Part shown: positions 345 through 48,623 of the stretch, one piece after another
Layout: each line of letters begins with the position of its first letter
How positions within the stretch are numbered: position 1 is the first letter of the stretch
NCBI GenBank assembly: GCA_934167305.1
Contig: CAKPKQ010000002.1
Span: 26,791-90,790, forward strand
DNA: 64,000 nt
Direction: 5' to 3'
DNA from: an uncultured Clostridia bacterium
GTDB lineage: Bacteria > Bacillota > Clostridia > TANB77 > CAG-508
The notes under the pieces: generated by a model
Told to the model about the DNA's origin: nothing
The model's input: the letters and a program-made list of their open reading frames with translations, nothing else
Databases searched by the model: none
Program-made: the position numbers and the translations under genes

Positions 345-421
345 TGGTAGCGAGAGGGGGATTCGAACCCTCGACACCGCGGGTATGAACCGCGTGCTCT
401 AGCCAACTGAGCTATCTCGCC
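345..421 (-). tRNA. tRNA with CAT anticodon (elongator Met, or Ile2 if lysidine-modified)
   Basis: The reverse complement GGCGAGA-TA-GCTC-AGTTGGCTA-GAGC-A-CGCGG-TTCATAC-CCGCG-GTGTC-GAGGG-TTCGAAT-CCCCC-TCTCGCT-A-CCA folds as a 77-nt cloverleaf with encoded CCA. There is one A-C mismatch in the T stem. It lacks the initiator GGG/CCC anticodon stem. Confidence 0.8.
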
Positions 422-7318: not shown

Positions 7319-7349
7319 TGTCAGTTTAGGGACGTTTCTTTAACTGACA
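7319..7349. repeat. Solo unit of the nested-palindrome repeat family
   Basis: tgtcagtttagggacgtttctttaactgaca has 8-bp inverted ends (tgtcagtt/aactgaca). It lies between the stop of the CapA-like gene (7350) and the rimO RBS. Confidence 0.85.
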
Positions 7350-8597
7350 TTACTTAATTACTTTTTCTAACAATTTTAATCCTTCTAACAATTTATTATA
7401 AGTTTTTTTATTGACAATGCTTGTATTACCATTAGCATATGCTTTTGCTGTACCCTTCATATCTATTAACTCATATCTATTTTGAGCCTTTGTACCATTA
7501 TCTAATACATATATTGGTGTATATTCTACCTTTGCCAATTCTGTTTTTTGACTTTCTGCATCTGTTCTAAGCTCAATGTTTAAAATTAGTTCCACTTTTG
7601 ATACATCCATAGTTTCACCAGATATATAATTTCCTAATGAGTATGCAACTAATGCATTTTCTCCATCTCTATTTTGCATAATTTCCATATTTTGAACAGC
7701 AGATGCATGATTTCCTAAAATCATGTCTGCACCATTATCCACTAAAAACTTTGCTATCGCTTTTTGCTCATCACTTGGACTTGTTGAATATGCATTTCCC
7801 CAATGCATAATTATTATATTAAAATCTGCATTTTGATTTGCGTAATCTAAATCTTCTTTGGCAATTTTTTCATTATATACATTAACTGTATCTAGTTCTT
7901 CAGCAGTTTTAGTCTCTTGTTTTTCTACTCCATAAGTATATGATAAAAATGCTATTTTGACATTTTTAACATTTTTTATTACTACTCTGTTTTCTCCTAG
8001 ATTATCTCCAACGACATCATATCCTAACCCTTCAAGTGCCCTCTTAGTTTCTTGAACTCCTTCTATTCCATAGTCCAAAGTATGGTTAGTGCTTATTGTA
8101 ACTAAGTTTACACCACTTTTCTTTACGGCTTCTGCAAATGATATTGGACTATTTCTTAAGCCATATCCTGAATAGCTATTATCTGTAAAATTTGTTTCCA
8201 TTGTTCCTAAAGTTATGTCACTATCAGTTAGTAAGCTTGATACATTTTTAAACATTGGTTCAAAATCATATGTATCACCATTTTTTGCATCATCTAGCAT
8301 GGTATTTTCACACAAAATGTCACCTACTGCTGATATTCTAATAATGCTATTTCTTAATGTGTTGTTTGAATTAACTATGTTTTGATTTGTAGCTGTAAAA
8401 ATTGCTTCAATATTTTTTTCTAATTCTTCTCTTTGCTTTGCCAACAATTCTTTATCTTTTTTATTACGATAAGATATGTTTGCAACACATATACATATTA
8501 TCAAACCTAAAATTACCAATAAAGTTATAAAAGTTTTTAAACTCATTGTTTCAAATATTAAATTTAATTTTCTCTTATTTCTGCGATTTCTTGCCAT
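7350..8597 (-). CDS. CapA family (PGA_cap) metallophosphatase-like membrane-anchored protein
   Basis: N-terminal TM segment followed by CapA-type motifs (ISAVGDIL, TNHTLDYG, IAFLSYTYG, IIMHWGNAY, GADMILGNHAS, SLGNYISG). Confidence 0.8.
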   Translation of the reverse strand: MARNRRNKRKLNLIFETMSLKTFITLLVILGLIICICVANISYRNKKDKELLAKQREELEKNIEAIFTATNQNIVNSNNTLRNSIIRISAVGDILCENTMLDDAKNGDTYDFEPMFKNVSSLLTDSDITLGTMETNFTDNSYSGYGLRNSPISFAEAVKKSGVNLVTISTNHTLDYGIEGVQETKRALEGLGYDVVGDNLGENRVVIKNVKNVKIAFLSYTYGVEKQETKTAEELDTVNVYNEKIAKEDLDYANQNADFNIIIMHWGNAYSTSPSDEQKAIAKFLVDNGADMILGNHASAVQNMEIMQNRDGENALVAYSLGNYISGETMDVSKVELILNIELRTDAESQKTELAKVEYTPIYVLDNGTKAQNRYELIDMKGTAKAYANGNTSIVNKKTYNKLLEGLKLLEKVIK

Positions 8598-8666
8598 TTA
8601 TATCACCCGTTTATAATTTATCATATTTTTTTAAATAAGTAAAGGTGGAAATTTTTTTCCACCTTT

Positions 8667-9680
8667 TTAGTTTTTACTCACACAAGGAGCATTATGAACT
8701 ACTATCCCATTTGCAAAAAAGTTATCATTTTCATCATTATCTATTTCTTCATTAAAATCTACTATATCTAAGTTATATGTTACTATTGGTTCTGTTGTGT
8801 ATCTTTCTATTTTACTTATTTTAGTATATCCTTCTTTTGTTTTTACATAATCTTGCTCTGTCAAAGTTTCAAATCCCATATAATTTGTTAATGATTTAAA
8901 TCCTTCTTTTGTGTATAGTGGATGATAATCCGTCATATCTAGTACTGTTCCATCTTCTAGATACACCTTTGCCATGTTTGTTGCTTTTGGATTTATTATT
9001 AAAGAATTTACTTTTGCTAAATATTTTTCTCCTGTTTTAACATTATATGATACTACTGTATCTCCTTTTCTATAATCTTCTATATTTTTTGTGTTTCCTT
9101 CTAAATCAGATAATACCTGCGTTCCAGCAACAAAACAACAGTTATTAACATATACTTCAAATGTATCTGTTTTATTGCCATTCTCTGTCATTGCAGTTAT
9201 AACAAGAGTTTCTCCTCCTCTCACATACTTGCTTATTTTCACAGTATTTTCATTAACAGTAGTGATTGTTGCAGACTCATCACTACAACTCCATGTAACC
9301 TTTTTATTGGTTGCATTTTCTGGCTCTATTATTGCGGAAAGTTCTAAGTTTAAATTTCCTTCTATCACAGTTGTATTTTCCGAATCAACCCCATTATATA
9401 ATATTTTAATACCAGTTACAGGGATATTAGTATCTGTTATACTATCTATTTTATTTGATAAATCATTCATCGCATCTAAGTCACTATCTTTTGCTTCATT
9501 CATTTCTTTTTGCGATTCCCTAGCTATTTTTATTATTCCTTTATCACTAAACACTGAATTTATTGTTACTCCCGCTAAAATTAATAGTATTATTATAGTA
9601 ATTACTAAAGCTATTAAAGTAATACCTTTTTGATTGGTATAAACCTTTTTGCTCTTTGTAAATTTTATATTTACTTTCAT
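8667..9680 (-). CDS. Modular surface protein: prepilin-like N-terminal module + Big_2 Ig-like domain + C-terminal Hint (bacterial intein-like) domain
   Basis: NQKGITLIALVITIIILLILAGV leader. Big_2-like segment (EPENATNKKVTWSCSDESATITTV...LVITAMTENGNKTDTFEVYV). Hint blocks CFVAGTQV..., TDYHPLYT, and NFFANGIVVHN followed by only 7 residues. Confidence 0.8.
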   Translation of the reverse strand: MKVNIKFTKSKKVYTNQKGITLIALVITIIILLILAGVTINSVFSDKGIIKIARESQKEMNEAKDSDLDAMNDLSNKIDSITDTNIPVTGIKILYNGVDSENTTVIEGNLNLELSAIIEPENATNKKVTWSCSDESATITTVNENTVKISKYVRGGETLVITAMTENGNKTDTFEVYVNNCCFVAGTQVLSDLEGNTKNIEDYRKGDTVVSYNVKTGEKYLAKVNSLIINPKATNMAKVYLEDGTVLDMTDYHPLYTKEGFKSLTNYMGFETLTEQDYVKTKEGYTKISKIERYTTEPIVTYNLDIVDFNEEIDNDENDNFFANGIVVHNAPCVSKN

Positions 9681-9845
9681 ATTTTGTTTTCCTTCCTATT
9701 TTTCTTGTAATTCTATCCTGTGATTATAATACTATATTGAATTTTATTTTTCAATAATTTTCTACAATTCCATAAACATTTATCTTTTTTATCTAGTAAA
9801 AATTCTATAATGAAAAAAGGTGGAAATTTTTTTCCACCTTCAAAA

Positions 9846-11064: not shown

Positions 11065-11784
11065 ATGTCAATTCATTGTAATGCTAAAAAAGAAGATATA
11101 ACTAAAACTGTTCTTATGCCTGGTGACCCTCTTCGTGCAAAATATATTGCCGAAAATTTTTTAGAAAATGCTAGGCTAGTAAATACAGTTAGAAATATGC
11201 TTGCATATACAGGAACATATAAAGGAAAAGAAATTTCTGTTTTTTCTCATGGTATGGGAATGGCAAGTATGGGAATCTATTGTTATGAATTATATAAATT
11301 CTATGATGTAGAAAATATTATTCGTATTGGTTCATGTGGAGCTTATTCTGAAGATTTAAATATTTTTGATACTATATTAGTTGATAATAGCTACACAGAA
11401 GGTAACTTTGCTTATGAATGGAATAATAAAGATTGTCATTTAATAGAATCTAGTAGTTTATTAAATGAAATTATAGAAAAAACTTCACAAAACTGTAATA
11501 TTCCTTATGTTAAAGGAAATATTTTATGTAGTGATTGCTTTGATGGATATTTGGAAGATGTAAATGGTTTAATTAATAGATTTCCAAAAGACTTAAATAT
11601 TATTGGAGCAGAAATGGAATCTTTTGCACTATTTTACTTAGCAAAATATTTAGGAAAACAAGCCTCTTGCTTATTAACAGTTGTTGATTCAATTTGCAAA
11701 AAACAAGAAATAAGTTCTGAAGATCGCGAAAAATCTTTAAACAATATGATAACATTAGCTTTAGAGAGTGCTTTGTCAGTTTAG
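11065..11784 (+). CDS. deoD: Purine nucleoside phosphorylase, DeoD type (PNP_UDP_1 family)
   Basis: Motifs VLMPGDPLRAKYIAENFL, YTGTYKGKEISVFSHGMGMASMGIY and GAEMESFALF. The last four codons, including the stop, lie inside the repeat element. Confidence 0.85.
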   Translation: MSIHCNAKKEDITKTVLMPGDPLRAKYIAENFLENARLVNTVRNMLAYTGTYKGKEISVFSHGMGMASMGIYCYELYKFYDVENIIRIGSCGAYSEDLNIFDTILVDNSYTEGNFAYEWNNKDCHLIESSSLLNEIIEKTSQNCNIPYVKGNILCSDCFDGYLEDVNGLINRFPKDLNIIGAEMESFALFYLAKYLGKQASCLLTVVDSICKKQEISSEDREKSLNNMITLALESALSV

Positions 11785-11911
11785 GGACGTTTCTTTAACT
11801 GACATAAATGTCAGTTTTTGGGGACACATCTTTAATTTAAATTAGCAATAATTAAAGATGTGTCCCCTGACTGACAAAAATGTCAGTTGAAGAAACGTCC
11901 CCAAACTGACA
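11774..11911. repeat. Full-length nested-palindrome repeat element (138 bp)
   Basis: Unit (11774-11804), taaa, central long hairpin tgtcagtttttggggacacatcttta...taaagatgtgtcccctgactgaca (11809-11876), aaaa, inverted unit (11881-11911). It fills the convergent deoD/greA intergenic gap. Confidence 0.9.
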
Positions 11912-11918
11912 CTTTTAT

Positions 11919-12395
11919 TTATTTTGTTATTGATAATACTTTATATTGGATAATTCCTGCTGGTGCTTGAACTTCTACTATTTGGTTTTTCTTAGCTCCT
12001 AAGATTGCACTTCCTATTGGAGATTCGTTTGATATTTTGTTTTGTGCTAAGTCAACTTCTGTAGAACCTACTAATGTATAGCTTACTTCTTCATTGAATT
12101 CCATGTCTAATAATTTTACTGTATTTCCAACTTGAACTGTTTTAGTATCTATTTCTGATTCATCTATAATTTTTGCATTTCTAAGCTTGTTTTCTAATTC
12201 TACAATTTTGGTTTCGTTTTCAGCTTGAGCATTTTTTGCTTCATCATATTCTGAGTTTTCTGATAAATCACCAAATCCTAAAGCAATTTTTATTCTTTCA
12301 GCTATTTCAGCTCTTTTAGTTGTTTTTAAATTATCTAATTCTTGTTCTAATTTGTCATAACCTTCTTGTGTTAGTAATACCTCTTTTTCTTCCAT
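11919..12395 (-). CDS. greA: Transcription elongation factor GreA
   Basis: 158 aa with a coiled-coil N-domain ([17 protein letters not shown]...[12 protein letters not shown]) and a GreA/B C-terminal domain ([12 protein letters not shown]). Confidence 0.95.
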
Positions 12396-17110: not shown

Positions 17111-17127
17111 TTTTGGAGGTAAATTAT

Positions 17128-17514
17128 ATGGATTTTATACAAAGTATTGACTGGTTAGGAATATTAAAATGTTTTGTTGTTGGAGGAATTATATGTATTA
17201 TTGGACAAATTCTTATAGACAAAACCAAATTAACTCCTGCTAGAATTTTGGTTATATATGTTACTGTTGGTGCTATTTTAGGTGGACTTGGAATTTACAA
17301 ATATTTAATAGATTTTGCTGGTGCTGGCGCTACTGTTCCATTAACTGGATTTGGTGCAAATTTGGCCAAAGGTGCTATACAAGAAGTTAAATCTTCTGGA
17401 TTATTAGGTGCTTTTGTTGGTGGTGTAAAGGCTTCTGCTGGCGGAATTGCTGCTGCTGTTTTCTTTGGATATTTAGCATCTTTGATTGCAAAACCTAAAA
17501 TAAAGAAACAATAA
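17128..17514 (+). CDS. spoVAE: Stage V sporulation protein AE (SpoVAEb-type)
   Basis: GGAGG RBS upstream of the ATG at 17128. Multi-TM protein with GAGATVPLTGFGANLAKG, paralogous to SpoVAC. Confidence 0.85.
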   Translation: MDFIQSIDWLGILKCFVVGGIICIIGQILIDKTKLTPARILVIYVTVGAILGGLGIYKYLIDFAGAGATVPLTGFGANLAKGAIQEVKSSGLLGAFVGGVKASAGGIAAAVFFGYLASLIAKPKIKKQ

Positions 17515-17557: not shown

Positions 17558-19330
17558 TTATAAATAAAGTATTACTCTAAAACCAACAAAATCATGTGGA
17601 AATCTTATACTATCTGACAATCTAAAACTTGCATAATAGTATGTATCATTATAATATCCACCCCTGCATACACAAGGTGAAGATGACTTTGTTGAATACT
17701 CTGTTGTCCATTCACATACATTGCTTGCCAAGTCAAAAATTTTACATACTTCATCACCTGTTGCACCAGTAGTTTTTAAAGTTGTATTTGTTCCTCTGCC
17801 TGCATTTGGATAATTACTTTGTTGCATAGTTCTTATATATAATAATGTTGTATCCCATGCATAGCTATTTATTAAATCAGCTTCTAAAGAATTATTATCT
17901 GTATATGCACTTCTTGCAATTCTTGCAGCAGCTACTTGTGTTACATAATTCCATACTCCCAAACCTTTTTTAGATTGTGGTTTAACACTTCCGTCTGTTA
18001 ATGTTTTTTTAGCTAATTGATTATTATCAACTGTGCCTGTTATTCCAGCTTCATAACGAGCTATATAAAATCCACCATTATTTTTAACTTTTGTTATAAA
18101 ATCTTTTAAGTTCTTAGCAGTAGTATTAGTTGATGTTGAATCATATAAACCATTCGAAATTCTTGAATCACTTAGTTCGTAGAAGAAACTACCAGATCTA
18201 TACTTTGTATCTACTGTTCCGTCTGCCACGTTCTCTGCTGTTGTTTTTAAATAATCAGCTCCACTTTGTATCAAACTCGGAGTTCCATCCTCATATTCAT
18301 TTGTTGTTGAATTTTTTACCCTTTTAAATCCATATCTTCCCAGAGTTATTACTACTTCTGTACCATCACTTTTTTTAATAGGATTTGTATTACTTCCATC
18401 AATATTGCTTACTGGTACCCATACATATTGATTTCCTTCACTGTCTTCTATTACTATGCCTTCTTCAACTGTATCTCCAGAATCATCTGCTAAATCAAAT
18501 CCATCTGGAATCACTATTGTATTACCATTTGAATCTTCTATTTTTCCACTAATTGGACCCTTTAAAATTGGACCTTCAATCGTTTCTCTTTTGTTTCCAA
18601 CATTATCAACTGATAAAACATGCAAATAATATCTTTCTTTTGTTATATCAAGCGTAATTGTCTCTTCAGTATTTGTAAAAGAATTTGTATAAGAGCTTTC
18701 ATTTGTTCCAATCATTGAATTTGTTGTATTATATACCCATTTACATTTACTGATATCAATTCCTGTTTCATTATCATTTAGAACAATTTTAGCATTTATA
18801 CTTTTTCTACCATTAGAACTAATTGATATTGACGCATCTTCCGGTGCCATTCCATCTATTATTTTTATACTACTTAATGTATTTTTTACTATTTCATCAT
18901 TTTTTAGTAATCTAGCCCAAACTGTATCATTATGTTTTAAGTTAATTATTGGTTCAGTATATTCGATCCAATCTCCAGTATTAGAATTTTTTTGATATTG
19001 TATTGTATAACCTTTTATAGTATAGTTTCCTTTTGTTGCCTTTAATTTTAAGGTTACTTTTCCATCTTTCCATTTTTCTTTTCCATCTTTTTCAACTTTT
19101 AATACTGTTGATTCTGCTGGATTCATAATACTATTTAAATTATTTAGCATATTATTCAATTCTTCATTAGCTAAGTCAGATCTTTCTTCTACATTTTGTG
19201 CATAATTTTCAGATCTATTTACAACACCATTATCACTTACAATCATAACTACAGACGTAATAGCTAAAATTAATGTAATTATTATTGTTACAGCTAAAGC
19301 AATTAGAGTTATACCCTTTTGATCTCTCAT
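17558..19330 (-). CDS. Modular surface protein: prepilin-like N-terminal module + Ig-like middle region + C-terminal FGE-sulfatase (SUMF1 / C-type-lectin-fold) domain
   Basis: Start chosen at MRDQKGITLIALAVTIIITLIL (GAGG RBS), not the upstream ATG at 19360. The C-terminus has SUMF1-type motifs (YVWVP, GFYIARYE, NSYAWDT, GDEVCKIFDLASNVCEWTTE, CRGG..., GFRVILYL). Confidence 0.8.
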   Translation of the reverse strand: MRDQKGITLIALAVTIIITLILAITSVVMIVSDNGVVNRSENYAQNVEERSDLANEELNNMLNNLNSIMNPAESTVLKVEKDGKEKWKDGKVTLKLKATKGNYTIKGYTIQYQKNSNTGDWIEYTEPIINLKHNDTVWARLLKNDEIVKNTLSSIKIIDGMAPEDASISISSNGRKSINAKIVLNDNETGIDISKCKWVYNTTNSMIGTNESSYTNSFTNTEETITLDITKERYYLHVLSVDNVGNKRETIEGPILKGPISGKIEDSNGNTIVIPDGFDLADDSGDTVEEGIVIEDSEGNQYVWVPVSNIDGSNTNPIKKSDGTEVVITLGRYGFKRVKNSTTNEYEDGTPSLIQSGADYLKTTAENVADGTVDTKYRSGSFFYELSDSRISNGLYDSTSTNTTAKNLKDFITKVKNNGGFYIARYEAGITGTVDNNQLAKKTLTDGSVKPQSKKGLGVWNYVTQVAAARIARSAYTDNNSLEADLINSYAWDTTLLYIRTMQQSNYPNAGRGTNTTLKTTGATGDEVCKIFDLASNVCEWTTEYSTKSSSPCVCRGGYYNDTYYYASFRLSDSIRFPHDFVGFRVILYL

Positions 19331-19346
19331 ATTTAATACCTCTTTT

Positions 19347-19556
19347 TTATATATCTTCATTCAGCTCATTAATCAAGTTTTTTAACTCCCTATTATTGGA
19401 ATCTTGACCATCTTGAATTCCTTCCACTAAATTTTGCGATTTATCTATTATTCCATCTTCTTTAAACACTATGTCAATTGACACCGTTACTAAAATCAAC
19501 AAAATAATTATTGTTATTACTAAAACAATTAGTGTTATTCCCTCTTGTTTTTTCAT
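19347..19556 (-). CDS. Stand-alone prepilin-like N-terminal module (69 aa)
   Basis: MKKQEGITLIVLVITIIILLILV... followed by the same acidic helical stalk as its neighbours (...RELKNLINELNEDI). A GAAGG RBS is present. It has no C-terminal domain. Confidence 0.6.
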   Translation of the reverse strand: MKKQEGITLIVLVITIIILLILVTVSIDIVFKEDGIIDKSQNLVEGIQDGQDSNNRELKNLINELNEDI

Positions 19557-19583
19557 TTCAAACCTTCTTTCTTGTTGCTATTT

Positions 19584-21332
19584 TCATTTAACATATAGTA
19601 TTGGTCTAAATCCATAAATTATGTCATTATAGCTTACTTCCCATTTCATTCTTGAGTTAATTGTAAGTGAACTATCATAGAAAATTCCACCTCTTGTTAC
19701 ACATGGTGTATATTCTTCTTCATCAGCAAAAAACTCTGTTGTCCATTCAAACAAATTGCCGCTCATATCAAATATCTTGCACACTTCGTCTCCTGTTTCT
19801 CCTGTATTTCTTATTGTTCCGTTTCCATCTGATTTAATGGCATAACTATTGCCTTTCATTTTTTTCATATATACTATAGTTGTGTCCCATGCATAACTAT
19901 TTATCAAATCACATGCCACTGTTTCATTAGCTTTATACATGTTTTTACATACTTTAGCAGCATTTGATTGATTAATGCAATTCCATAATGTTCCTTTGTT
20001 ATAATTCATTTGACTCATACTCATTGCTGTAGATTTTTTTGACATTGGTTTTGCATTTTTATATCTTTCAGAATCATTTTCTCCTTGCTCATTATACCCT
20101 TCATTATAACTTGCTTCATATCTTGCTATATAAAATCCTTTATTTACCTTTACATTGTTTATAAATTCTTTCAAATTTTCCGCAGATGTGTTTATTTCAA
20201 CAAAGTCATCTTCTCCATTTGATTCTCTATATTCTTTTAATTCTTTATATTGGCCTATTGGAGTTTCATTTTCATAGTTATCACCACTTTGAACCATTGT
20301 TTCTTCTCCACTTGAATTAAAAGTATATCTACCTAATGTTATTACAACTTTGCTTCCATCATCTTTTATTATTGGATTACTATTACTTCCATCAGTATTA
20401 CTTACAGGTACCCACACGAACTGATTTCCATCAGCATCTTCTACAACAATTCCTTGTTCAACTGTACTACCTGAATCGCTTGCTAATTTAAAGCCTCCTG
20501 GTATTACTATATTGTTCCCTTTTGAATCTTGCATGATTCTTGTTATATATTGAACCTCAATTGGCCCCTTTATTGTTTCTTTTGCATTACTTGCTTTATC
20601 AACTGATAATATATGTATATACCATGGTTTTGAGCTTGCCAGATTTAAGCTTATAGTTTGGTTATCACTAGTAAAAGTATTAGTATAATTTGAGCTATCT
20701 AGTCCAAGTGCAGTATTGGAATTATTTAATATCCATTTACACTTGGAAATATCAATTCCAGTTTCATTATCAATATGTTCTACTGTTACTGAATTAACTT
20801 TATTATTTGCAATATCAACATCAAATGTAGTTAATGCCTCTTCTGGCACTATATTATCCATAATTCTTACTGTAGTTGTAGTATTCTCCACAACTGCTTT
20901 GTCTTTCACAGCTCTATAAACCAATGTACTATTATGTGGCAGGTCTGTTATTGGACCAGTATAAGTTGTCCACACACCACTTGAAACACCCTTTTTGTAT
21001 TCAATTTTATATTCATCTGCAACCTTTTGATTTGCAATTACCATTAATTCTATAGTTGCATATCCATTTTTCCATTTTTTAATTCCCAATTGCTCAATTC
21101 TTACTTCTTTTGTATTTGCCTCTTTAAGTATAACATCAAGTTGATCTATTAACTCTTTTACCTTTCGATCATTTTTTTGTTGTTTTTCTTCCATTCTATC
21201 TGATAAGTCCGTAGCCTGATCTGTCATTCCATCTTCATCAATTAATGTATTAACTGTTGCTCCAACTAATATTAATATTACAATTATTGTTACTGCTAAA
21301 ACAATTAATGTAACACCTCTTTGATTTTTCAT
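19584..21332 (-). CDS. Modular surface protein, paralog: prepilin-like module + Ig-like region + FGE-sulfatase/CLec-fold domain
   Basis: MKNQRGVTLIVLAVTIIVILIL leader with a GAGG RBS. Shared middle block DNETGIDISKCKW...HILSVDKASNAKETIKGPI. C-terminal motifs FVWVP, GFYIARYE, NSYAWDT, GDEVCKIFDMSGNLFEWTTE, TRGG..., GFRPILYV. Confidence 0.8.
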   Translation of the reverse strand: MKNQRGVTLIVLAVTIIVILILVGATVNTLIDEDGMTDQATDLSDRMEEKQQKNDRKVKELIDQLDVILKEANTKEVRIEQLGIKKWKNGYATIELMVIANQKVADEYKIEYKKGVSSGVWTTYTGPITDLPHNSTLVYRAVKDKAVVENTTTTVRIMDNIVPEEALTTFDVDIANNKVNSVTVEHIDNETGIDISKCKWILNNSNTALGLDSSNYTNTFTSDNQTISLNLASSKPWYIHILSVDKASNAKETIKGPIEVQYITRIMQDSKGNNIVIPGGFKLASDSGSTVEQGIVVEDADGNQFVWVPVSNTDGSNSNPIIKDDGSKVVITLGRYTFNSSGEETMVQSGDNYENETPIGQYKELKEYRESNGEDDFVEINTSAENLKEFINNVKVNKGFYIARYEASYNEGYNEQGENDSERYKNAKPMSKKSTAMSMSQMNYNKGTLWNCINQSNAAKVCKNMYKANETVACDLINSYAWDTTIVYMKKMKGNSYAIKSDGNGTIRNTGETGDEVCKIFDMSGNLFEWTTEFFADEEEYTPCVTRGGIFYDSSLTINSRMKWEVSYNDIIYGFRPILYVK

Positions 21333-21387
21333 TTTAAATACCTCTTATTTTGAATTTTAGTCTTTTAATTCCAGTTTTACTGAAGGT

Positions 21388-22287
21388 TTAAGTGAAACTA
21401 TTGGCATTAGTTACAATTTTCCCAATATAATATTTAAAATTATTTTCTGTTAATGTTACTGTTTCTCCGTTTATTACTACTTTTGGAGATTTTGATACAT
21501 CTGCTCTGCATTTTTTTACAGTTTCTCTAGCATTTCCTGCATTATCTACAGATAATACATGTAAATACCATGCTCCTGCTGTGTCACCAGATATTTCAAT
21601 TTTTTCACCATCATTTGTAAAAGAATTACTATATTTGCTTGCTTCTGTTCCTATTAGTGAACTTATTTGATTAATCTCCCATTTACATGCTGTAATTTTT
21701 ATTCCACTTTCATTATCAGTATGGCTGATTGTTGCAGAGCCACTATACCCTGTAGCCATATCTGTATCTAATATTATAGTTGCTTCTTTAGGAGCTATTT
21801 TATCTAATATAGTTATGCTTGTTGTGTCACTTACAGCAACACTATTACTATCAATTGCATAACATAATATAGTATCCCCATTATCACCTGTAATTGAGTC
21901 TTTGTATGTATTCCACACTCTATTAATTCCTCTTGTTGATGCTGTTTTTTTATACAATATGTCATATTCATCTGTAGGATATCCACCATCTAAAACTTTT
22001 AATTTTATTGTAGCTTTTCCATCTTTCCACACAGTTTTTCCATCTTGTACAACCTCAATTTGAGGAGACTCCTCTGGATTCATTATTGAATCTAATTCAT
22101 CAGCCATATCTTTAATTTTTTTATCATTTTCTTTACTACTTTTTTCAACATTTTTTGATAAGTCTACAGCTTGATTACTAAGTCCTTCATCATCTAACAA
22201 AGCTGCCAAAGTCGTACTTGCTAAAATAAGTAATATTATTATTGTTACTACTAAAGCGATTAATGTTATACCTTTTTGATTTTTCAT
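21388..22287 (-). CDS. Modular surface protein, paralog lacking the FGE domain: prepilin-like module + Ig-like region
   Basis: Start at MKNQKGITLIALVVTIIILLIL (GTGAGGA RBS). Shares DNESGIKITACKW...YLHVLSVDNAGNARETV with the two larger paralogs and ends shortly after that block. Confidence 0.75.
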   Translation of the reverse strand: MKNQKGITLIALVVTIIILLILASTTLAALLDDEGLSNQAVDLSKNVEKSSKENDKKIKDMADELDSIMNPEESPQIEVVQDGKTVWKDGKATIKLKVLDGGYPTDEYDILYKKTASTRGINRVWNTYKDSITGDNGDTILCYAIDSNSVAVSDTTSITILDKIAPKEATIILDTDMATGYSGSATISHTDNESGIKITACKWEINQISSLIGTEASKYSNSFTNDGEKIEISGDTAGAWYLHVLSVDNAGNARETVKKCRADVSKSPKVVINGETVTLTENNFKYYIGKIVTNANSFT

Positions 22288-22493
22288 TTTAATCCTCACT
22301 TTTTCTAATCTATTCCCTTTTAATTTTACATCATTTATTACTATAAAGTAAATATACATAGAGTATATGTAATATAATTTTAATATAATTGTAACGATTT
22401 TGTAACACTCTGTTTTTAGCTTAAATATTGACTTTAAAAAATCGTTATGGTAGTATAAATTAATAATTATGTTTCTTGAAAGGAAGGTAACAA

Positions 22494-24930: not shown

Positions 24931-25335
24931 ATGGCTAAGAAATCTGATAATATTGTTTTTTTAGGAACAGGAAGAAGAAAAAAATCAATTGCTAGAGTAA
25001 GATTAGTAGAAGGAAAAGGAAACATTACTGTTAACGGTAAAGCTTTAGATGAATACTTTGGAACAGAAGTATTAAAAGTTATAGTAAAACAACCATTAGT
25101 TGCAACAAATACATTAGATAAATATGATGTTATTTGTAAAGTTGTTGGTGGTGGATTTACAGGTCAAGCAGGAGCTATTCGTCATGGTATAGCAAGAGCA
25201 TTAAATGAAGCTAATAGCGAATACAGACCAGCTTTAAAATCTGCAGGATTCTTAACAAGAGATCCTCGTATGAAAGAAAGAAAAAAATACGGTCTTAAAA
25301 AAGCTAGAAAAGCTCCACAATTTAGTAAACGTTAA
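24931..25335 (+). CDS. rpsI: 30S ribosomal protein S9
   Basis: [14 protein letters not shown]...[19 protein letters not shown]...[12 protein letters not shown] is a canonical S9. Confidence 0.97.
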
Positions 25336-25342
25336 AATTCAA

Positions 25343-25374
25343 AAGAAGTTGCAGTATATGCAACTTCTTTTTTT
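25343..25374 (+). terminator. Intrinsic terminator of rplM-rpsI
   Basis: AAGAAGTTGCAgtatatGCAACTTCTT followed by a T-run. Confidence 0.8.
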
Positions 25375-25384
25375 ATGCCATCTT

Positions 25385-25461
25385 GGACGGAGAATATTGG
25401 CACATTTGACTAGCAATGAAGAATGAAATTAAATTTTAAAATGTGCCAATATTCTCCGTCC
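25385..25461. repeat. Long inverted repeat (22-23 bp arms, about 32-nt loop)
   Basis: ggacggagaatattggcacatt ... aatgtgccaatattctccgtcc, lying in the convergent rpsI/yunB gap. Confidence 0.8.
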
Positions 25462-25477
25462 CAGATAGCACAAATAA

Positions 25478-26194
25478 CTATTCTATTATATCTATTGCAT
25501 TATCTTTTGTAATTCCATTTAAGTTATAATAAGCATTTGGAATATCTCCTACTATTACTCCTTCTGCTATAAGTACTTGATTTGCAATTACTTCTTCCAT
25601 TGTTTCTAATGGCGTTAGTATTATCACCCTACATTTTATTTCTAAATATATTCTATGCAATGTTTGGTTTATTCCAGCTGATGTAAATTCTGATCTTAAA
25701 TCAGTCTCCATGTCTCCTACCATTTGTACTTTTACATTCACCTTTGGTCCCATACCAGAAAACAATTTACTTCCCAAAAAACTTCCTAATGGAATTTTAA
25801 AACTACTATTTTCCTCTCTTTCCAATTCTTCTTGTATATATACAGGAATATCAGATATTATCTTATTAATTGTAAAAATATTAGTTCCAACTCTATTTAT
25901 ATTTCCATTCTGATCTTTACTTATTTCAAGTATGTCATCATATTCATATTTTGCCATTACTTCGGTAGCTTTAATGTTTGATACTTTAGTTGCAACAGAT
26001 TTTGCCATACTTTTACAGTTTTTCTCAATTATTGGTTGAATTCCCTTTATGCCAAAACTTGCTGTGCTAATTGCTATTGCAAGTATAATCGCTATTTTAA
26101 ATAATTTAGACAAATCTTTTTGGTTCATATCTCTGTTTTTGAACGTTATTTTAGGTAACCTTAATCGTGATCGTGAATAAATTTTATCACTCAT
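25478..26194 (-). CDS. yunB: Sporulation protein YunB
   Basis: N-terminal TM segment and the YunB-type C-terminus (FTSAGINQTLHRIYLEIKCRVIILTPL...IAEGVIVGDIPNAY). Confidence 0.75.
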   Translation of the reverse strand: MSDKIYSRSRLRLPKITFKNRDMNQKDLSKLFKIAIILAIAISTASFGIKGIQPIIEKNCKSMAKSVATKVSNIKATEVMAKYEYDDILEISKDQNGNINRVGTNIFTINKIISDIPVYIQEELEREENSSFKIPLGSFLGSKLFSGMGPKVNVKVQMVGDMETDLRSEFTSAGINQTLHRIYLEIKCRVIILTPLETMEEVIANQVLIAEGVIVGDIPNAYYNLNGITKDNAIDIIE

Positions 26195-29228: not shown

Positions 29229-29284
29229 TGTCAGTTTGGGGACGTTTCTTTAACTGACATTTTGTCAGTTTGGGGACACATCTT
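29229..29284. repeat. Left-half copy of the nested-palindrome repeat element
   Basis: Unit tgtcagtttggggacgtttctttaactgaca (29229-29259), ttt, then tgtcagtttggggacacatctt (29263-29284). The similarity ends at the centre of the palindrome. Confidence 0.85.
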
Positions 29285-34535: not shown

Positions 34536-36779
34536 ATGGAATTTAAACAATGGGAAGGATTTAATAAACAAGGTGAATGGACTAAGGAAATAGATGTTAG
34601 AGGTTTCATTCAAGCAAACTACACACCTTATGAAGGAAATGATGATTTCTTGGTAGGTGCAACAGAAAAAACTCAAAAATTATGGAATAACGTTACAGAC
34701 TTATACAAACAAGAAAGAGAAAATGGAGATGTTTTAGATGTTGATGTTAAAACTCCATCTGGAATAAATGCTTATGCCCCTGGCTATATAAATAAAGAAC
34801 TAGAAGAAATTGTTGGTCTTCAAACAGATGCACCTTTAAAAAGAGCAATTATGCCAAATGGTGGTATTAGAATAGTTGAAAAATCTTGTGAGAGCTACGG
34901 TTACAAAGTTGATGAAAATATCGAATATATTTACCATAATTTAAGAAGAACTCACAATGATGGTGTTTTCGCAGTATATACACCAGAAATTAGAGCAGCT
35001 AGAAGTTCACACTTAATTACAGGTCTTCCTGATGGATATGGTCGTGGAAGAATTATAGGTGATTACAGAAGAGTTGCTTTATATGGTGTTGATGCATTAA
35101 TTAAAGAAAAACAAGAAGAGTTTTCTTTATTAGATTCTGATGAAATGACTGATGAATTAATTCGTCAAAGAGAAGAAATGCATGATCAAATTTTTGCATT
35201 AAATGAATTAAAAGCAATGGCTGCAAGTTATGGATATGATATTTCTGAGCCTGCAACAACTGCAAAGGAAGCTATTCAATGGTTATACTTTGGATATTTA
35301 GCTGCTGTTAAAGATCAAAATGGTGCAGCTATGAGCTTAGGTAGAACATCTACATTCTTAGATATATATATTGAAAGAGATATGAAAAATGGTACTTTAA
35401 CAGAAGAACAAGCTCAAGAATTAATTGACCAATTTGTTATAAAATTAAGATTAGTTCGTTTCTTAAGAGCTCCTGAGTACAATGCTTTATTTACAGGTGA
35501 TCCTGTTTGGGTAACTGAAAGCATTGGTGGTATGGGTATTGATGGAAGAACATTAGTAACAAAGAACTCTTTTAGAATACTACACACACTTGAAAACTTA
35601 GGACCTGCTCCAGAGCCAAACTTAACTGTATTATGGTCTAAGAATCTACCAGAAGGATTTAAAAAATTCTGTGCTGATATCTCTATAAAAACATCATCTA
35701 TTCAATATGAAAATGATGACTTAATGAGAGTTACTTTAGGTGATGATTATGGCATTGCATGCTGTGTATCTGCTATGAAAATAGGTAAACAAATGCAATT
35801 CTTTGGTGCAAGAGCAAACTTAGCTAAAGCACTTCTATATGCTATCAACGGCGGTAGAGATGAAAAATCTGGAAAACAAGTTACTCCAGAATTTGCACCT
35901 ATTACTTCAGAATATTTAGATTATGATGAAGTTATGAGAAAATTTGATAATATGATGGAATATTTAGCTAAAACATATATTAAAGCATTAAATATGATTC
36001 ACTATATGCATGATAAATATTCTTATGAAGCATTAGAAATGGCTTTACATGATAAAGAAAGAGACATTTTAAGAACAATGGCTTGTGGTATAGCTGGTTT
36101 ATCAGTTGTTGCTGATTCTTTATCTGCAATAAAATATGCAAAAGTTAAAGTAATTAGAGATGAAACTGGATTAGCTGTTGATTATCAAGTTGAAGGCGAT
36201 TTTCCTAAATACGGAAATGACGACGACAGAGTTGATGAAATTGCAGTTAATATAGTAAAATCATTTATGAAAAAATTAGAAAAACATCATACTTACAAAA
36301 ATTCAAGAGCAACATTATCAATTTTAACTATTACTTCAAATGTGGTATATGGTAAAAATACTGGTAATACTCCTGATGGAAGAAGAGACGGCGAACCATT
36401 TGGACCTGGTGCCAACCCATTACATGGTAGAGATGTAAATGGAGCTTTAGCTGTTATGAATACAATTGCTAAACTTCCTTATGAATATTCTGAAGATGGT
36501 ATTTCATATACATTTTCAATTACACCAGCAACTCTTGGAAAAGATGAAGATTCAAAAATAAATAACTTAGTAAGTATGTTAGATGGCTTCTTTGTTCAAA
36601 CAGGACATCATATAAATGTTAACGTATTTGATAGAGATTTATTGCTTGATGCAATGGATCACCCTGAAAAATATCCACAATTAACAATTCGTGTTTCTGG
36701 ATATGCTGTTAACTTTATAAAATTAACTAGAGAACAACAATTAGAAGTAATTCACAGAACAATACACGAGAAAATTTAG
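34536..36779 (+). CDS. pflB: Formate C-acetyltransferase (pyruvate formate-lyase)
   Basis: 747 aa with the catalytic Cys pair (GIACCVSAM) and glycyl-radical motif ([11 protein letters not shown]). Confidence 0.97.
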
Positions 36780-36788
36780 GAGGAAATA

Positions 36789-37499
36789 ATGAAAGCAAGA
36801 ATACACTCTTTTGAATCTTTTGGAACAGTTGATGGACCTGGTATCAGGTTTGTAATCTTCATGCAAGGATGTAATTTGAGGTGTAAATTCTGCCAAAATA
36901 GAGATACTTGGGACGTATGCGGTGGTATGGAATATACCGTTCCAGAATTGTTAGCCAAAATCGAAAGGTACAAAAGCTATTTTGTACCTTCTGGTGGAGG
37001 TGTTACAATTAGTGGTGGTGAGCCATTAGTTCAGCAAGATTTTTTAATAGAATTATTAACTGCTTTAAAAGCTGACGGAATTCATACTGCTATTGATACT
37101 GCTGGAAATTTTGATATAACAGATAAGGTAAAGCAAATAATTGACTTATCAAATTTATTTTTATTAGATATAAAGTGTATAAATGATGATATCTGCAAAT
37201 ATTTGACAAGTGTTTCTAACAAAAAAGAATTGGCCTTTGCGAAATATTTAAGTAGCATAAATAAACCAATGTGGATTAGACAAGTATTAGTTCCTGGAAT
37301 TACAGATAAAGAAGAAGATTTACTTAAGTTAAAAGACTTTATACATAGCTTAAGTTCTGTTCAAAAAGTTGAAATTCTTCCTTATCATGATTTAGGACGT
37401 TTTAAATGGGAAGAATTAGGATTAAAATATGAGCTTGATGGGGTTCCTCCTGCTACTCCAGAGGACGTATCAAGAGCCAAAGATATATTAGGTTTGTAA
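36789..37499 (+). CDS. pflA: Pyruvate formate-lyase activating enzyme
   Basis: Radical-SAM CNLRCKFCQN, the motif GGGVTISGGEPL, and a position immediately downstream of pflB. Confidence 0.95.
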   Translation: MKARIHSFESFGTVDGPGIRFVIFMQGCNLRCKFCQNRDTWDVCGGMEYTVPELLAKIERYKSYFVPSGGGVTISGGEPLVQQDFLIELLTALKADGIHTAIDTAGNFDITDKVKQIIDLSNLFLLDIKCINDDICKYLTSVSNKKELAFAKYLSSINKPMWIRQVLVPGITDKEEDLLKLKDFIHSLSSVQKVEILPYHDLGRFKWEELGLKYELDGVPPATPEDVSRAKDILGL

Positions 37500-41977: not shown

Positions 41978-42063
41978 GAGACACATCTTTTGAGATTTAA
42001 ACTTTTAAGATGTGTCCCCTGACTGACATTTTTGTCAGTTAAAGAAACGTCCCCAAACTGACA
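41978..42063. repeat. Right-half copy of the nested-palindrome repeat element
   Basis: Central hairpin gagacacatctt...aagatgtgtcccctgactgaca (41978-42028), spacer, then the inverted unit tgtcagttaaagaaacgtccccaaactgaca (42033-42063). It abuts the prkC stop codon (42064). Confidence 0.85.
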
Positions 42064-44031
42064 TTAGTCGATTGTTAATACTGGATTCTCGGTTGATAGG
42101 TTAAATTGTTTTGTTGTTTTCTTTATGTCGTTTATCCATACTTTTACTGTTACTGTTCCTTTGCCTGAAACTTCTGCTTCTATGTTTGTTTCATCTTTTC
42201 TATTTGTATCATTATATATAGGTTCGTCATTTACAGTGATTTTTACATTTACAGTTGGATTTATTTCCTGTCCATTTTCATCCAATTTTATTTCAGATTC
42301 TGAACCAAGGAATGATTTTAAATTTAATTTAACAACACCTATTTTTATTTCTTCTATTTTATTTACAGTAATTGTTACTTTTGTTTTTTCTTCAATTGTT
42401 GTTCCTGCTTCAATACTTTGTTTTAAAACTCTTCCATCAGTTTTTGACATGTCTTCTTCATATACAACAGTTACTGTTAATCCTTCAAGTTTCTTTTTAG
42501 CTTCTTCTTCTGTATCTCCTATTACATAAGGCATAGCAATTTCTTTTAATCCTGTTCCTATGCTTACATATAGTTTTACTGTTTCACCTACTTTTATGTC
42601 TTTTCCTTCTTCAATTTCTTGTTTTATAACATATTCTTTTTCTACAGTTTTGCTTGTTTCTTCTATTTTTTCAACATTTAAATGTAATTCATCTTTTAGT
42701 TGTCTTTCTGCATCTTCATATTTCATTCCAACAACTTTAATCATTTTTACTGTTTCAGGGCCTTTACTTATTTTCACTTTTACAATAGTGTTCTCTTTTA
42801 CTGTTGCCCCTTCAGAAAATGGAGGATCTTGTGATATAATTTTTCCTATTTCAATTTCATCATTATATACTTCTTCTGTTTCTAATGTTAATTTTTCTTT
42901 TCCTAATGTTGCTTTTGCTTCTTCAATTGTTTGACCAACAAAATTAGGTAGTTTAACATCCTTTGGTAGACCCGCTTTTAATACTGCTTGAACACCAAAA
43001 AATCCTGCAATTGGAATTAAAATTACTAATAATATTGCTATTACTGTTATCCAAACTTTTTTAGCTGTTGGATGTTCTTCAAAATATTTAGCTAATTTTC
43101 CTTTTTTACCATCTTTTTCTACTTCTACTTGTGGTTCTTCTCCTAGTACAGGAACTCTTTGTGTATATTGTAATTTTTCTGCATTACTTTTTACAAATTC
43201 TCCTTCTGGATCTTTTAATGCCATGCTTAAATCTTTTAGCATTTCTGTAGCACTTTGATATCTTAAACTAGGCTCTTTTTCCATTGCTTTCATTATTATT
43301 TTATTTATTGCTAAAGGAATAGATGGATTTAGTTTTATTGGCTCAACTGGCTTTTCTTGCATATGTTTTAATGCAATAGATACAGGTGTATCTGCATCAA
43401 AAGGAACTCTACCAGTTAACATTTCATACATAACTACACCTAGTGAATATATATCAGACTTTGCATCTGTATATCCACCTCTAGCATGTTCTGGTGAAAA
43501 ATAATGTACTGATCCAATTGTTGTTCCAAAAGCTGTTATTGTTGAGTTTGAAACAGCTTTTGCAATTCCAAAATCAGTTACTTTGGCAATTCCATCTTCT
43601 GTTATTATAATATTATGAGGTTTAATATCTCTATGGACTATATTATTTTTATGTGCTGTTTCTAGAGCAGATGCAACTTGAATTGCAATGTTTATAGACC
43701 ATTTCCATGGTAATACGCCGTCTTCATTTATAATTTCTTTTAACGTTTTTCCTTGTACAAGTTCCATTACAATATAATAAACATTGTCTTCATGTCCTAC
43801 ATCAAATATTGATACAATATTTGGATGTGTAAGGCTTGCTGCAGCTTGTGCTTCTGTGTTAAATCTTTTTATAAATTCTTCATCTGTAGTATACTCTTCT
43901 CTTAAAACCTTGACTGCAACATACCTTTTTAGAATATTACATCTTGCCTTATATACGGTAGCCATGCCACCTTCTCCAATTTTTTCAAGTATTTCATATC
44001 TATTTCCTATTACTTTACCCACTAAATTCAT
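42064..44031 (-). CDS. prkC: Ser/Thr protein kinase with PASTA repeats
   Basis: Hanks kinase motifs (GEGGMATVYKA, HRDIKPHNI, DFGIAK, SPEHARG), a TM helix, repeated PASTA-like modules, and a C-terminal beta-rich extension. Confidence 0.92.
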   Translation of the reverse strand: MNLVGKVIGNRYEILEKIGEGGMATVYKARCNILKRYVAVKVLREEYTTDEEFIKRFNTEAQAAASLTHPNIVSIFDVGHEDNVYYIVMELVQGKTLKEIINEDGVLPWKWSINIAIQVASALETAHKNNIVHRDIKPHNIIITEDGIAKVTDFGIAKAVSNSTITAFGTTIGSVHYFSPEHARGGYTDAKSDIYSLGVVMYEMLTGRVPFDADTPVSIALKHMQEKPVEPIKLNPSIPLAINKIIMKAMEKEPSLRYQSATEMLKDLSMALKDPEGEFVKSNAEKLQYTQRVPVLGEEPQVEVEKDGKKGKLAKYFEEHPTAKKVWITVIAILLVILIPIAGFFGVQAVLKAGLPKDVKLPNFVGQTIEEAKATLGKEKLTLETEEVYNDEIEIGKIISQDPPFSEGATVKENTIVKVKISKGPETVKMIKVVGMKYEDAERQLKDELHLNVEKIEETSKTVEKEYVIKQEIEEGKDIKVGETVKLYVSIGTGLKEIAMPYVIGDTEEEAKKKLEGLTVTVVYEEDMSKTDGRVLKQSIEAGTTIEEKTKVTITVNKIEEIKIGVVKLNLKSFLGSESEIKLDENGQEINPTVNVKITVNDEPIYNDTNRKDETNIEAEVSGKGTVTVKVWINDIKKTTKQFNLSTENPVLTID

Positions 44032-48486: not shown

Positions 48487-48623
48487 TGTCAGTTCGGGGA
48501 CGTTTCTTTAACTGACACTTTTGTCAGTTGAGGGACACATCTCTCAAGCTTTTTTATCATGCTTTTAAGATGTGTCCCCCGAGTGACATTTGTGTCAGTT
48601 AAAGAAACGTCCCCGAACTGACA
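48487..48623. repeat. Full-length nested-palindrome repeat element (137 bp)
   Basis: Unit (48487-48517), cttt, central hairpin tgtcagttgagggacacatct...agatgtgtcccccgagtgaca (48522-48588), tttg, inverted unit (48593-48623). It ends 2 nt from the aspS stop codon. Confidence 0.9.

Follow-up and report, generated by a model that had tools for sequence, protein, structure and literature searches.

The stretch analysed here, hereafter the window, comprises 64 kb (64,000 nucleotides, nt) of contig CAKPKQ010000002.1 from an uncultured Clostridia bacterium, and among its housekeeping genes it carries five loci of a dispersed palindromic repeat. In our assessment it is highly probable that these loci are copies and decay products of a modular, non-autonomous DNA family akin to repetitive extragenic palindromic (REP) sequences, REPINs and bacterial interspersed mosaic elements (BIMEs), with a parent gene of the RAYT/TIRYT type, that is, one coding for a REP-associated tyrosine transposase (RAYT) or for its relatives found between terminal inverted repeats (TIRYT).

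Two units make up the family. Unit A, 31 nt long, folds into a hairpin whose stem has 8 bp and whose loop has 15 nt; the unit opens with TGTCAG and consists of the core TGTCAGTTNNGGGAC, then G-N7, then AACTGACA, its loop being conserved as GGGGACGTTTCT and holding the conserved block GGGGACGT. Unit B follows the pattern TGTCAGTT-NN-GGGGACACATCT and in the window reads as the core TGTCAGTTNNGGGAC followed by ACATCT. Exact matches to the A pattern, TGTCAGTT-N15-AACTGACA, occur seven times in the window (starting at 7319, 11774, 11881, 29229, 42033, 48487 and 48593) against 0.02 in dinucleotide-preserving shuffles, while the 15-nt core, common to unit A and the central hairpin, is found 12 times (0.32 expected) at the same five loci and GGGGACACATCT six times (0.05 expected). 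Searches of the window with the unit pattern, TGTCAGTTNNGGGAC and GGGGACACATCT gave no locus beyond the five. The seven A units make up two palindromes of 137-138 nt with the form A - B hairpin - A' (A' being the inverted unit), two halves and one solo unit, and the coordinates and sequences that an initial annotation, made from the sequence alone, had assigned to all five loci are correct.

Full copy 1 (11774-11911) starts with unit A at 11774-11804 on the plus strand (stem TGTCAGTT/AACTGACA, loop TAGGGACGTTTCTTT), continues with the central B hairpin at 11809-11876 (TGTCAGTTTTTGGGGACACATCT ... AGATGTGTCCCCTGACTGACA) and ends with A' at 11881-11911 on the minus strand, 7 nt from the greA stop (11919-11921). 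The B hairpin holds GGGGACAC, which fits the motif GGGGWSAS, and it is arranged like the B/B' pair around a radA-linked gene in three related loci discussed below (L176, L178 and L093). Unit A of this copy covers the end of the deoD-like (PNP_UDP_1) gene, whose TAG at 11782-11784 falls within the element; compared with the orthologue in L078, the element provides the final three codons and the stop. Full copy 2 (48487-48623), with A at 48487-48517, B at 48522-48588 and A' at 48593-48623, lies 2 nt past the aspS stop (48626-48628) and upstream of a promoter-like TTGACT-17-TATAAT site of the next open reading frame (ORF). The left half (29229-29284, plus strand) joins unit A (29229-29259) to the left arm of B (29263-29284) in the intergenic region of the divergent yabG and DUF1015 genes, and the right half (41978-42063, minus strand), in which A' (42033-42063) follows a B hairpin whose outer arm is degenerate (41978-42028), adjoins the prkC stop (42064-42066) upstream of rsgA. 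The solo unit (7319-7349), in A' orientation on the coding (minus) strand, sits between the PGA_cap stop (7350-7352) and the ribosome-binding site (RBS) and start (7305) of a MiaB-like gene. Pfam confirms PGA_cap, PNP_UDP_1, GreA, PrkC (kinase and PASTA domains) and AspS among the flanking genes and further gives the MiaB-like enzyme, RsgA, YabG and the DUF1015 protein. Four of the five copies lie close to a stop codon at the distances first noted, namely 0 nt for PGA_cap and prkC, 2 nt for aspS and 7 nt for greA.

Both full copies are near-perfect palindromes (the arms of full copy 2 are 63 nt long and 86% complementary), and their tripartite layout is as originally described. They had been thought able to fold as three hairpins or as one; single-strand folding returns one long hairpin for each, at -54 and -56.6 kcal/mol for DNA and at -89 and -95 kcal/mol for RNA (z about -16 to -18). 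Convergently evolved palindromic terminators or an assembly artefact have nothing here in their favour except that the background is AT-rich and the copies are palindromic. We give this explanation practically no credence: the copies have non-palindromic loop and spacer sequences in common, and the elements recur in independent assemblies from different human cohorts and in 10 metagenome-assembled genomes (MAGs), which refutes it. The solo unit at 7319 and full copy 1 stand at identical places in four conspecific contigs (99-99.96% identity), so these copies are no artefact of assembly and are fixed in the species. Exact matches to the GreA protein of the window are found in many human-gut assemblies (207 blocks of the collection) and led to contigs of the species of the window, among them ERZ4560289 NODE_35 and ERZ28563531 scaffold_26; for its aspS protein, the exact-match look-up has no match on record.

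Outside the window, a scan with the exact unit pattern over one genome per species returned 89 loci. All belong to MAGs that are labelled as uncultured Clostridia, number at least 10 and come from mouse gut among other sources, which places the repeats in a lineage of uncultured low-GC Clostridia. These loci do not include the window, with which the orthologous stretches share 74-88% nucleotide identity. Inverted doublets ('+-') are the main arrangement, accounting for 47 of 116 clusters. The commonest forms in these relatives are one of 49 nt (core - AGA - A') and one of 101 nt (A - 21-nt spacer - core - AGA - A'), next to which solo A units and A-spacer-A' doublets occur.

The same site can hold different forms in different species. 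At a single orthologous site the 31-, 49- or 101-nt form is present depending on the species; A and A' can also be flipped where a third species has the doublet, and doublet and solo forms occupy one orthologous site in L021 as against L002 and L065. Within a genome the loop 8-mer hardly varies, but genomes differ from one another in it: six of the seven window units have GTTTCTTT, which is absent from the 10 related MAGs, where the prevailing 8-mer is GTTAGTTT. The solo unit at 7319 has 80-101-nt copies as its orthologues in L077, L081 and L084, yet its loop is the one specific to the window. Form swaps at orthologous sites, taken together with genome-specific loop 8-mers, point to turnover or homogenisation in place, for which recombination between internal direct repeats, with re-seeding or gene conversion, is a ready explanation. 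At orthologous sites the units are far better conserved than the spacers.

The initial annotation had read the repeats as REP-like or MITE-like (miniature inverted-repeat transposable elements), and a gene that bears this out, of the RAYT or IS200 kind that it suggested might lie elsewhere, is present in related genomes. When every ORF of the fetched loci was scanned for the Y1 motif, four MAGs proved to encode a 260-amino-acid (aa) HUH...Y protein. Against Pfam Y1_Tnp it scores 47 bits (cut-off 23), and among NCBIfam models the REP-associated tyrosine transposase NF047646 fits it best (55.2 bits), the IS200 model reaching 20.8 bits (cut-off 55). Across 17 homologues neither the HUH histidines nor the catalytic tyrosine varies. 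A sequence-profile search of the PDB gave no match at E <= 0.01 (the sole match was 4er8, at E = 0.045), and we therefore used structure prediction and a fold search. The AlphaFold model has a mean predicted local distance difference test (pLDDT) score of 85 and a confident helical C-terminal domain; its best fold match is 4ER8, the E. coli TnpA-REP bound to a REP hairpin (target-normalised template modelling score 0.71, root-mean-square deviation 2.8 Å), followed by the IS608 and ISDra2 TnpA proteins.

At least one genome has two paralogs of this gene, 65-67% identical. The first lies between an S4-domain gene and dnaE, with a 49-nt element 27 nt past its stop. In L058 (6690-7516 and 7472-7575) the dnaE-linked transposase ORF runs 45 nt into the adjacent A unit, and its last 15 or so residues are repeat-encoded. 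The second lies upstream of radA-disA (L090, L093, L176-L178, L184, L190 and L192), a position that the RAYT-like gene holds in all the species checked, at protein identities as low as 47%, with disA and a peptidyl-prolyl isomerase gene nearby. Such synteny suggests long vertical inheritance at one locus.

It is around this second gene that the repeats of the window find their counterpart. The radA-linked loci were retrieved by protein identity, not by the repeat, and are thus free of the ascertainment bias of a pattern scan. In L176, unit A (1585-1615, TGTCATATTGGGGACGTTCCTTTTTTTGACA) and unit B (1620-1641, TGTCAGGTTGGGGACACACCTT) precede the gene (1825-2607), and B' (2613-2634) and A' (2639-2669) follow it; L178 and L093 have the same layout, L090 has the downstream pair only, and inverted flanking of the Y1 gene by units is seen in L176, L178, L093, L190 and L192. 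The order, orientation and 3-4-nt spacing of the units in L176 equal those of 11774-11911 and 48487-48623, and where the gene-bearing loci have roughly 1 kb with the gene, the full copies in the window have a loop of about 20-25 nt. The full copies accordingly stand to the gene-bearing unit as a MITE or REPIN does to the parent element, and the right half (41978-42063) corresponds to the downstream flank of the gene, B' then A'. From homology and this gene-flanking arrangement we infer mobilisation by the Y1 enzyme; the RAYT/TIRYT-type tyrosine transposase of the relatives is the likely mobilising enzyme, and the genome of the window presumably has a gene for it as well.

More distant homologues extend the association. 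At 47% identity, the homologues upstream of radA have inverted hairpins with the window loop GGGGACGTTTCT and different stems (TGTCC.../...GGACA). Within the clade the loop stays constant and the stem changes: stems TGTCCGAC and TGTCGCAC occur in other species together with the loop as in the window. At L184:4668-4698 and L187:4570-4595, also in other species, the loop AAACTAACGTCCCC is kept with stems TGTCCGAC/...TCGGACA or ...GTGCGACA. A metagenome scan by protein alignment found distant homologues (30-49% identity) in many habitats. Of the 52 loci whose flanks were long enough, 28 have the gene enclosed by inverted repeats of 14 nt or more, and nearly all of these repeats contain GGGGACG. 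A hairpin with a GGGACG(G/T) loop stands within 450 nt of the gene at 48 of 77 metagenomic homologue loci, on both sides in 25; over the 77 loci, 43 hairpins are upstream and forward, 38 downstream and inverted, and 7 the opposite way. A stem of at least 5 bp flanks 59% of the motif occurrences as against 7.6% of control positions, and 43 different inner stems surround the conserved loop GGGACG(G/T)TTC, whose commonest version is GGGACGGTTCT. A constant loop on varying stems is what would be expected of a hairpin recognised by a protein.

The outward appearance of the full copies, with terminal inverted repeats, a length of about 140 bp and an intergenic position, would also suit MITEs derived from an insertion sequence (IS) of the DDE type, or deletion derivatives of IS200/IS605 elements moved by a multicopy IS, similar to palindrome-associated transposable elements (PATEs). 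An IS200/IS605 TnpA fragment is present in one relative, L051 (2779-3123; N-terminally truncated, NCBIfam 96 bits). This origin nevertheless appears very unlikely to us. The L051 fragment is separated from the nearest element by about 550 nt that include a SpoVAE-like gene and is probably unrelated, while the gene that the repeats do flank codes for the 260-aa RAYT-like protein at one syntenic locus upstream of radA across species and is not a multicopy IS. The ends of the elements are symmetrical, whereas in IS200/IS605 the left end is distinct from the right. A DDE transposase was noticed beside none of the copies, the locus ORFs having been scanned for the Y1 motif only and not searched systematically for DDE enzymes. 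Filled and empty sites could be compared at window 17111-17128 (with L059 and L051) and at window 36779-36789 (with L041 and L007), and at the filled sites the element fills the exact gap between stop codon and RBS. Target-site duplications, which an IS-derived origin would lead one to look for, are not evident at three filled-versus-empty or variant orthologous sites, where flanks about 80% identical leave room for a very short duplication.

That the repeats lie close to stop codons is a genuine and general feature of the family. In the context counts, which include orthologous copies and are therefore not all independent, the 107 clusters with genes on both sides fall between tandem genes in 81 cases, convergent genes in 19 and divergent genes in seven, and none of the 107 lies inside an ORF. 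Among 117 ends that face the 3' end of a gene, 21 overlap the stop, 50 are at 0-2 nt and 18 at 3-15 nt from it; among 68 that face a gene start, 35 are 0-5 nt from a Shine-Dalgarno-like motif. The 101-nt form is the most strictly placed: the stop of the upstream gene is at its A end in 22 of 22 copies (e.g., L088:3080-3180, L059:2828-2928 and L041:6041-6141), and the RBS and start of the next gene come directly after A' in at least 20 of the 22. Its spacer has a sigma-A-like promoter match (-35 CTGACA, 16 nt, TGnTAAAAT) with hexamers that are poorly conserved among orthologous copies. Being a consensus match of weak conservation, an internal promoter is kept here as a side note only; strict orientation together with the promoter match gives a hint of selection on transcription-related effects. 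Two further candidates were dismissed, namely DNA uptake sequences, ruled out by the strictly intergenic position of the copies, and integron attC sites, to whose core the GTTTAAC/GTTAAAC of the unit bears a resemblance, and which were rejected on the housekeeping-operon context alone, integrases and cassette arrays not having been searched for.

Such placement raises the question of whether the elements are RNA signals selected by the host, acting as terminators, as 3'-end stabilisers or as intercistronic processing or translation signals, with the Y1 gene merely incidental. This we consider possible, if rather unlikely. In its favour are the 71 of 117 stop-facing ends that overlap the stop or come within 2 nt of it; the frequent position of copies 0-5 nt upstream of a Shine-Dalgarno sequence; the constant orientation of the 101-nt form relative to transcription (22/22); the very stable RNA hairpins; the fixation of copies in four strains; and units much better conserved than spacers at orthologous sites. 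Additionally, work cited in PMC12306157 reports that E. coli REPs near stops stall ribosomes, and that about half of E. coli REPs stabilise upstream mRNA or impede terminating ribosomes. By analogy, hairpins abutting stops in these Clostridia could do the same, and an effect on mRNA stability or translation like that of the E. coli REPs is plausible. The terminator role proposed in the initial annotation fares worse. A U-rich tail (CUUUUAUUU) is found only after the plus strand of 11774-11911, and the copies after aspS, prkC and PGA_cap lie between genes of the same direction, upstream of same-strand genes and with no U tract, so that a general terminator role is not supported; a terminator scan flagged no whole element, only a small internal hairpin at 48528-48547. 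Furthermore, a fixed loop on free stems speaks for recognition by a protein over a generic hairpin, and loci retrieved by protein alone have these units on both sides of the transposase gene. A role in RNA is compatible with a transposase-associated origin of the family and could be a secondary, co-opted one.

Several observations count against derivation from, and mobilisation by, a RAYT/TIRYT-type enzyme. As the initial annotation had remarked, no transposase or RAYT gene is encoded in the 64-kb window; nor was the transposase gene of the species itself retrieved, look-ups P0047, P0034, P0065 and P0064 belonging to other species and the metagenome scan for it giving homologues at no more than 49% identity. 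The 55.2 bits of the relatives' protein stay below the curated NF047646 cut-off of 80, and its C-terminal helix-turn-helix (HTH) matches to HTH_17, HTH_23 and HTH_28 at residues 229-260 are all below the Pfam cut-offs. The 5' flanking element of the dnaE-linked paralog is about 750 bp off, with two genes intervening, and the GTAG/CGTC tag of the classical REP superfamilies is absent from the units. With regard to current mobility, no insertion or excision events were seen among the four strains over 20 kb, and the high conservation of units at orthologous sites could stem from selection in the host or from gene conversion instead of transposition. Even so, we hold the derivation from a RAYT/TIRYT-type parent to be the best account of the five loci.

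If the RAYT/TIRYT-type enzyme acts as its homologues TnpA-REP and IS200/IS605 TnpA do, the conserved loop and the stem would let it recognise the hairpin folded from single-stranded DNA, and it would cut and rejoin the DNA beside the hairpin, the repeats spreading or persisting without target-site duplications. The 138-nt copies of the window are both ends of the gene-bearing unit joined head to head, with the gene absent. Halves, 49-nt forms and solo units would arise in place by recombination between internal direct repeats (the TGTCAGTTNNGGGAC core and the stem arms). The copies that survive are those tolerated between a stop codon and the next RBS or between convergent genes. Once transcribed, copies are predicted to form very stable RNA hairpins that may affect the stability of mRNA 3' ends or the translation of the upstream gene, as compared above with the REPs of E. 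coli.

The closest published systems are TIRtrons, RAYT-like (TIRYT) genes flanked by terminal inverted repeats, many of which share GGGGWSAS, and some of whose repeats form moderately abundant dispersed families, as dimers or clusters (Di Nocera et al. 2013, PMC3733652). The family described here is likewise dispersed, with dimers or clusters, and the Y1 gene of the relatives is likewise flanked by inverted repeats with GGGG(A/T)(C/G)A(C/G), its B/B' being GGGGACAC in both L176 and the window. Twenty of 26 TIRYTs belong to TnpA-REP subclass 2.1, which has C-terminal HTH-type domains (Bac_DnaA_C, HTH_23 and HTH_28) and near whose genes REP-like sequences were not found (Quentin et al. 2018, PMC6006769). 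The protein studied here, longer than classical RAYTs and with a helical, HTH-like C-terminus, may belong to subclass 2.1. On the other hand, the terminal repeats here are composites of two units; the outer A hairpin has its conserved GGGGACGT in the loop and misfits GGGGWSAS at position 7; 48 of 77 homologue loci have hairpins, in contrast to none reported near subclass 2.1 genes; and the host is an uncultured low-GC Clostridia lineage. Group 1 RAYTs have also been reported from Clostridia, with flanking 16-mers of low abundance (Bertels et al. 2017, PMC5581495).

With the REP/REPIN-RAYT systems of Proteobacteria, such as E. coli BIMEs and Pseudomonas REPINs (PMC3116915, PMC3333891, PMC5581495), the family shares dense, short intergenic hairpins in which inverted doublets are the main form and singlets are remnants, a mosaic, BIME-like organisation with lineage-specific variants, a Y1 gene flanked by units at one syntenic locus across related species, the lack of target-site duplication and a position near stop codons. 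It differs in having no GTAG/CGTC tag, in a loop that is long (15 nt) and conserved instead of short, in a protein with an extra C-terminal domain that scores below the NCBIfam RAYT cut-off, and in its host, a member of the Bacillota. The likeness to IS200/IS605 and PATEs lies in the HUH/Y1 chemistry on single-stranded DNA hairpins, which the fold match to IS608 and ISDra2 TnpA would predict here too; the symmetrical ends, the single syntenic locus of the gene and the model scores (21 bits for IS200 against 55 for RAYT) set the family apart from them. The small BOX, RUP, bcr1 and EFAR repeats of Gram-positive bacteria are not known to have any sequence similarity to the TGTCAGTT family or to be linked to a Y1 transposase. 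Like the present elements, those repeats (listed in PMC3733652) are modular or hairpin-forming, intergenic, 50-170 bp long, found in Bacillota and co-transcribed with their neighbours.

The earlier statement that the repeats match no named family holds for the DNA sequence and fails for the class, which has been published as TIRYT/TIRtron (PMC3733652) and as TnpA-REP subclass 2.1 (PMC6006769). At its gathering threshold Rfam returned only a tRNA from the window (348-421, minus strand), and by E-value it added only generic plant-miRNA long-hairpin models at no more than 47 bits, against cut-offs of 80-211. Neither the unit pattern nor the 138-nt copy matched viral contigs, plasmids or phages, and a literature search for the loop motif GGGGACGGTTC gave irrelevant matches only and no paper with the motif. 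The element class is thus already known, and the DNA family and its host lineage are undescribed in the literature that was searched. Since B fits GGGGWSAS, A does not, and GTAG/CGTC is absent, we file the family as an unnamed addition to the class of RAYT/TIRYT-associated repeats.

The window holds other repeats as well. A 24-nt terminator-like hairpin, AAGGTGGAAATTTTTTTCCACCTT, occurs in two identical copies (8642-8665 and 9817-9840) with an ORF (8667-9680) between them, and the conspecific strains L181 and L183 are without 8666-9815, exactly the stretch between both copies; the Big_2-like gene there is accordingly a strain-variable indel bounded by AAGGTGGAAATTTTTTTCCACCTT. Another inverted repeat, at 25369-25477, has 39-nt arms with 90% complementarity across a gap of 31 nt; its sequence has no relation to the TGTCAGTT family, and convergent ORFs (24931-25335, plus strand, and 25478-26194, minus strand) flank it. 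Finally, 17558-22359 holds three tandem paralogous ORFs (600, 582 and 323 aa) with common repeats of 60-220 nt at 65-85% identity, and no Pfam hits are on record for their orthologues in L180.

A more far-reaching proposal would be a domesticated partnership and not just a parasite that is tolerated, in which the Y1-HTH enzyme, fixed upstream of radA throughout a deep clade of Clostridia, maintains oriented hairpins between stop and Shine-Dalgarno as punctuation of operons, and in which the HTH-bearing TnpA-REP subclass is a second large REP-forming lineage. We regard this as doubtful and put it forward tentatively for what it would entail. If true, the modules could tune upstream translation or mRNA decay, and the 101-nt form might contribute an internal promoter and, after it, a 5' stabilising stem-loop. 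That second lineage, moreover, would be one recognised through the conserved loop and not through the GTAG tag, in a subclass earlier reported to be without REPs.

The repeats have practical consequences as well. They account for unannotated palindromes beside stop codons in gut MAGs, and they can break assemblies and shift predicted gene ends, as in the terminal codons of the deoD-like gene; the loop variant, GTTTCTTT in the window as against the related MAGs, marks lineages. Composite A+B ends, a loop-centred motif, a dense family in Bacillota and hairpins at HTH-bearing homologues are possible extensions of published work. REP/REPIN-RAYT systems have been studied almost wholly in Proteobacteria, and here they gain a dense and well-defined case in a common, uncultured human-gut Clostridia species. 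For the HTH-bearing Y1 transposases of the TIRYT class, the family offers a model of the substrate: a hairpin with a conserved GGGGACG(G/T)TTC loop on a freely varying stem.

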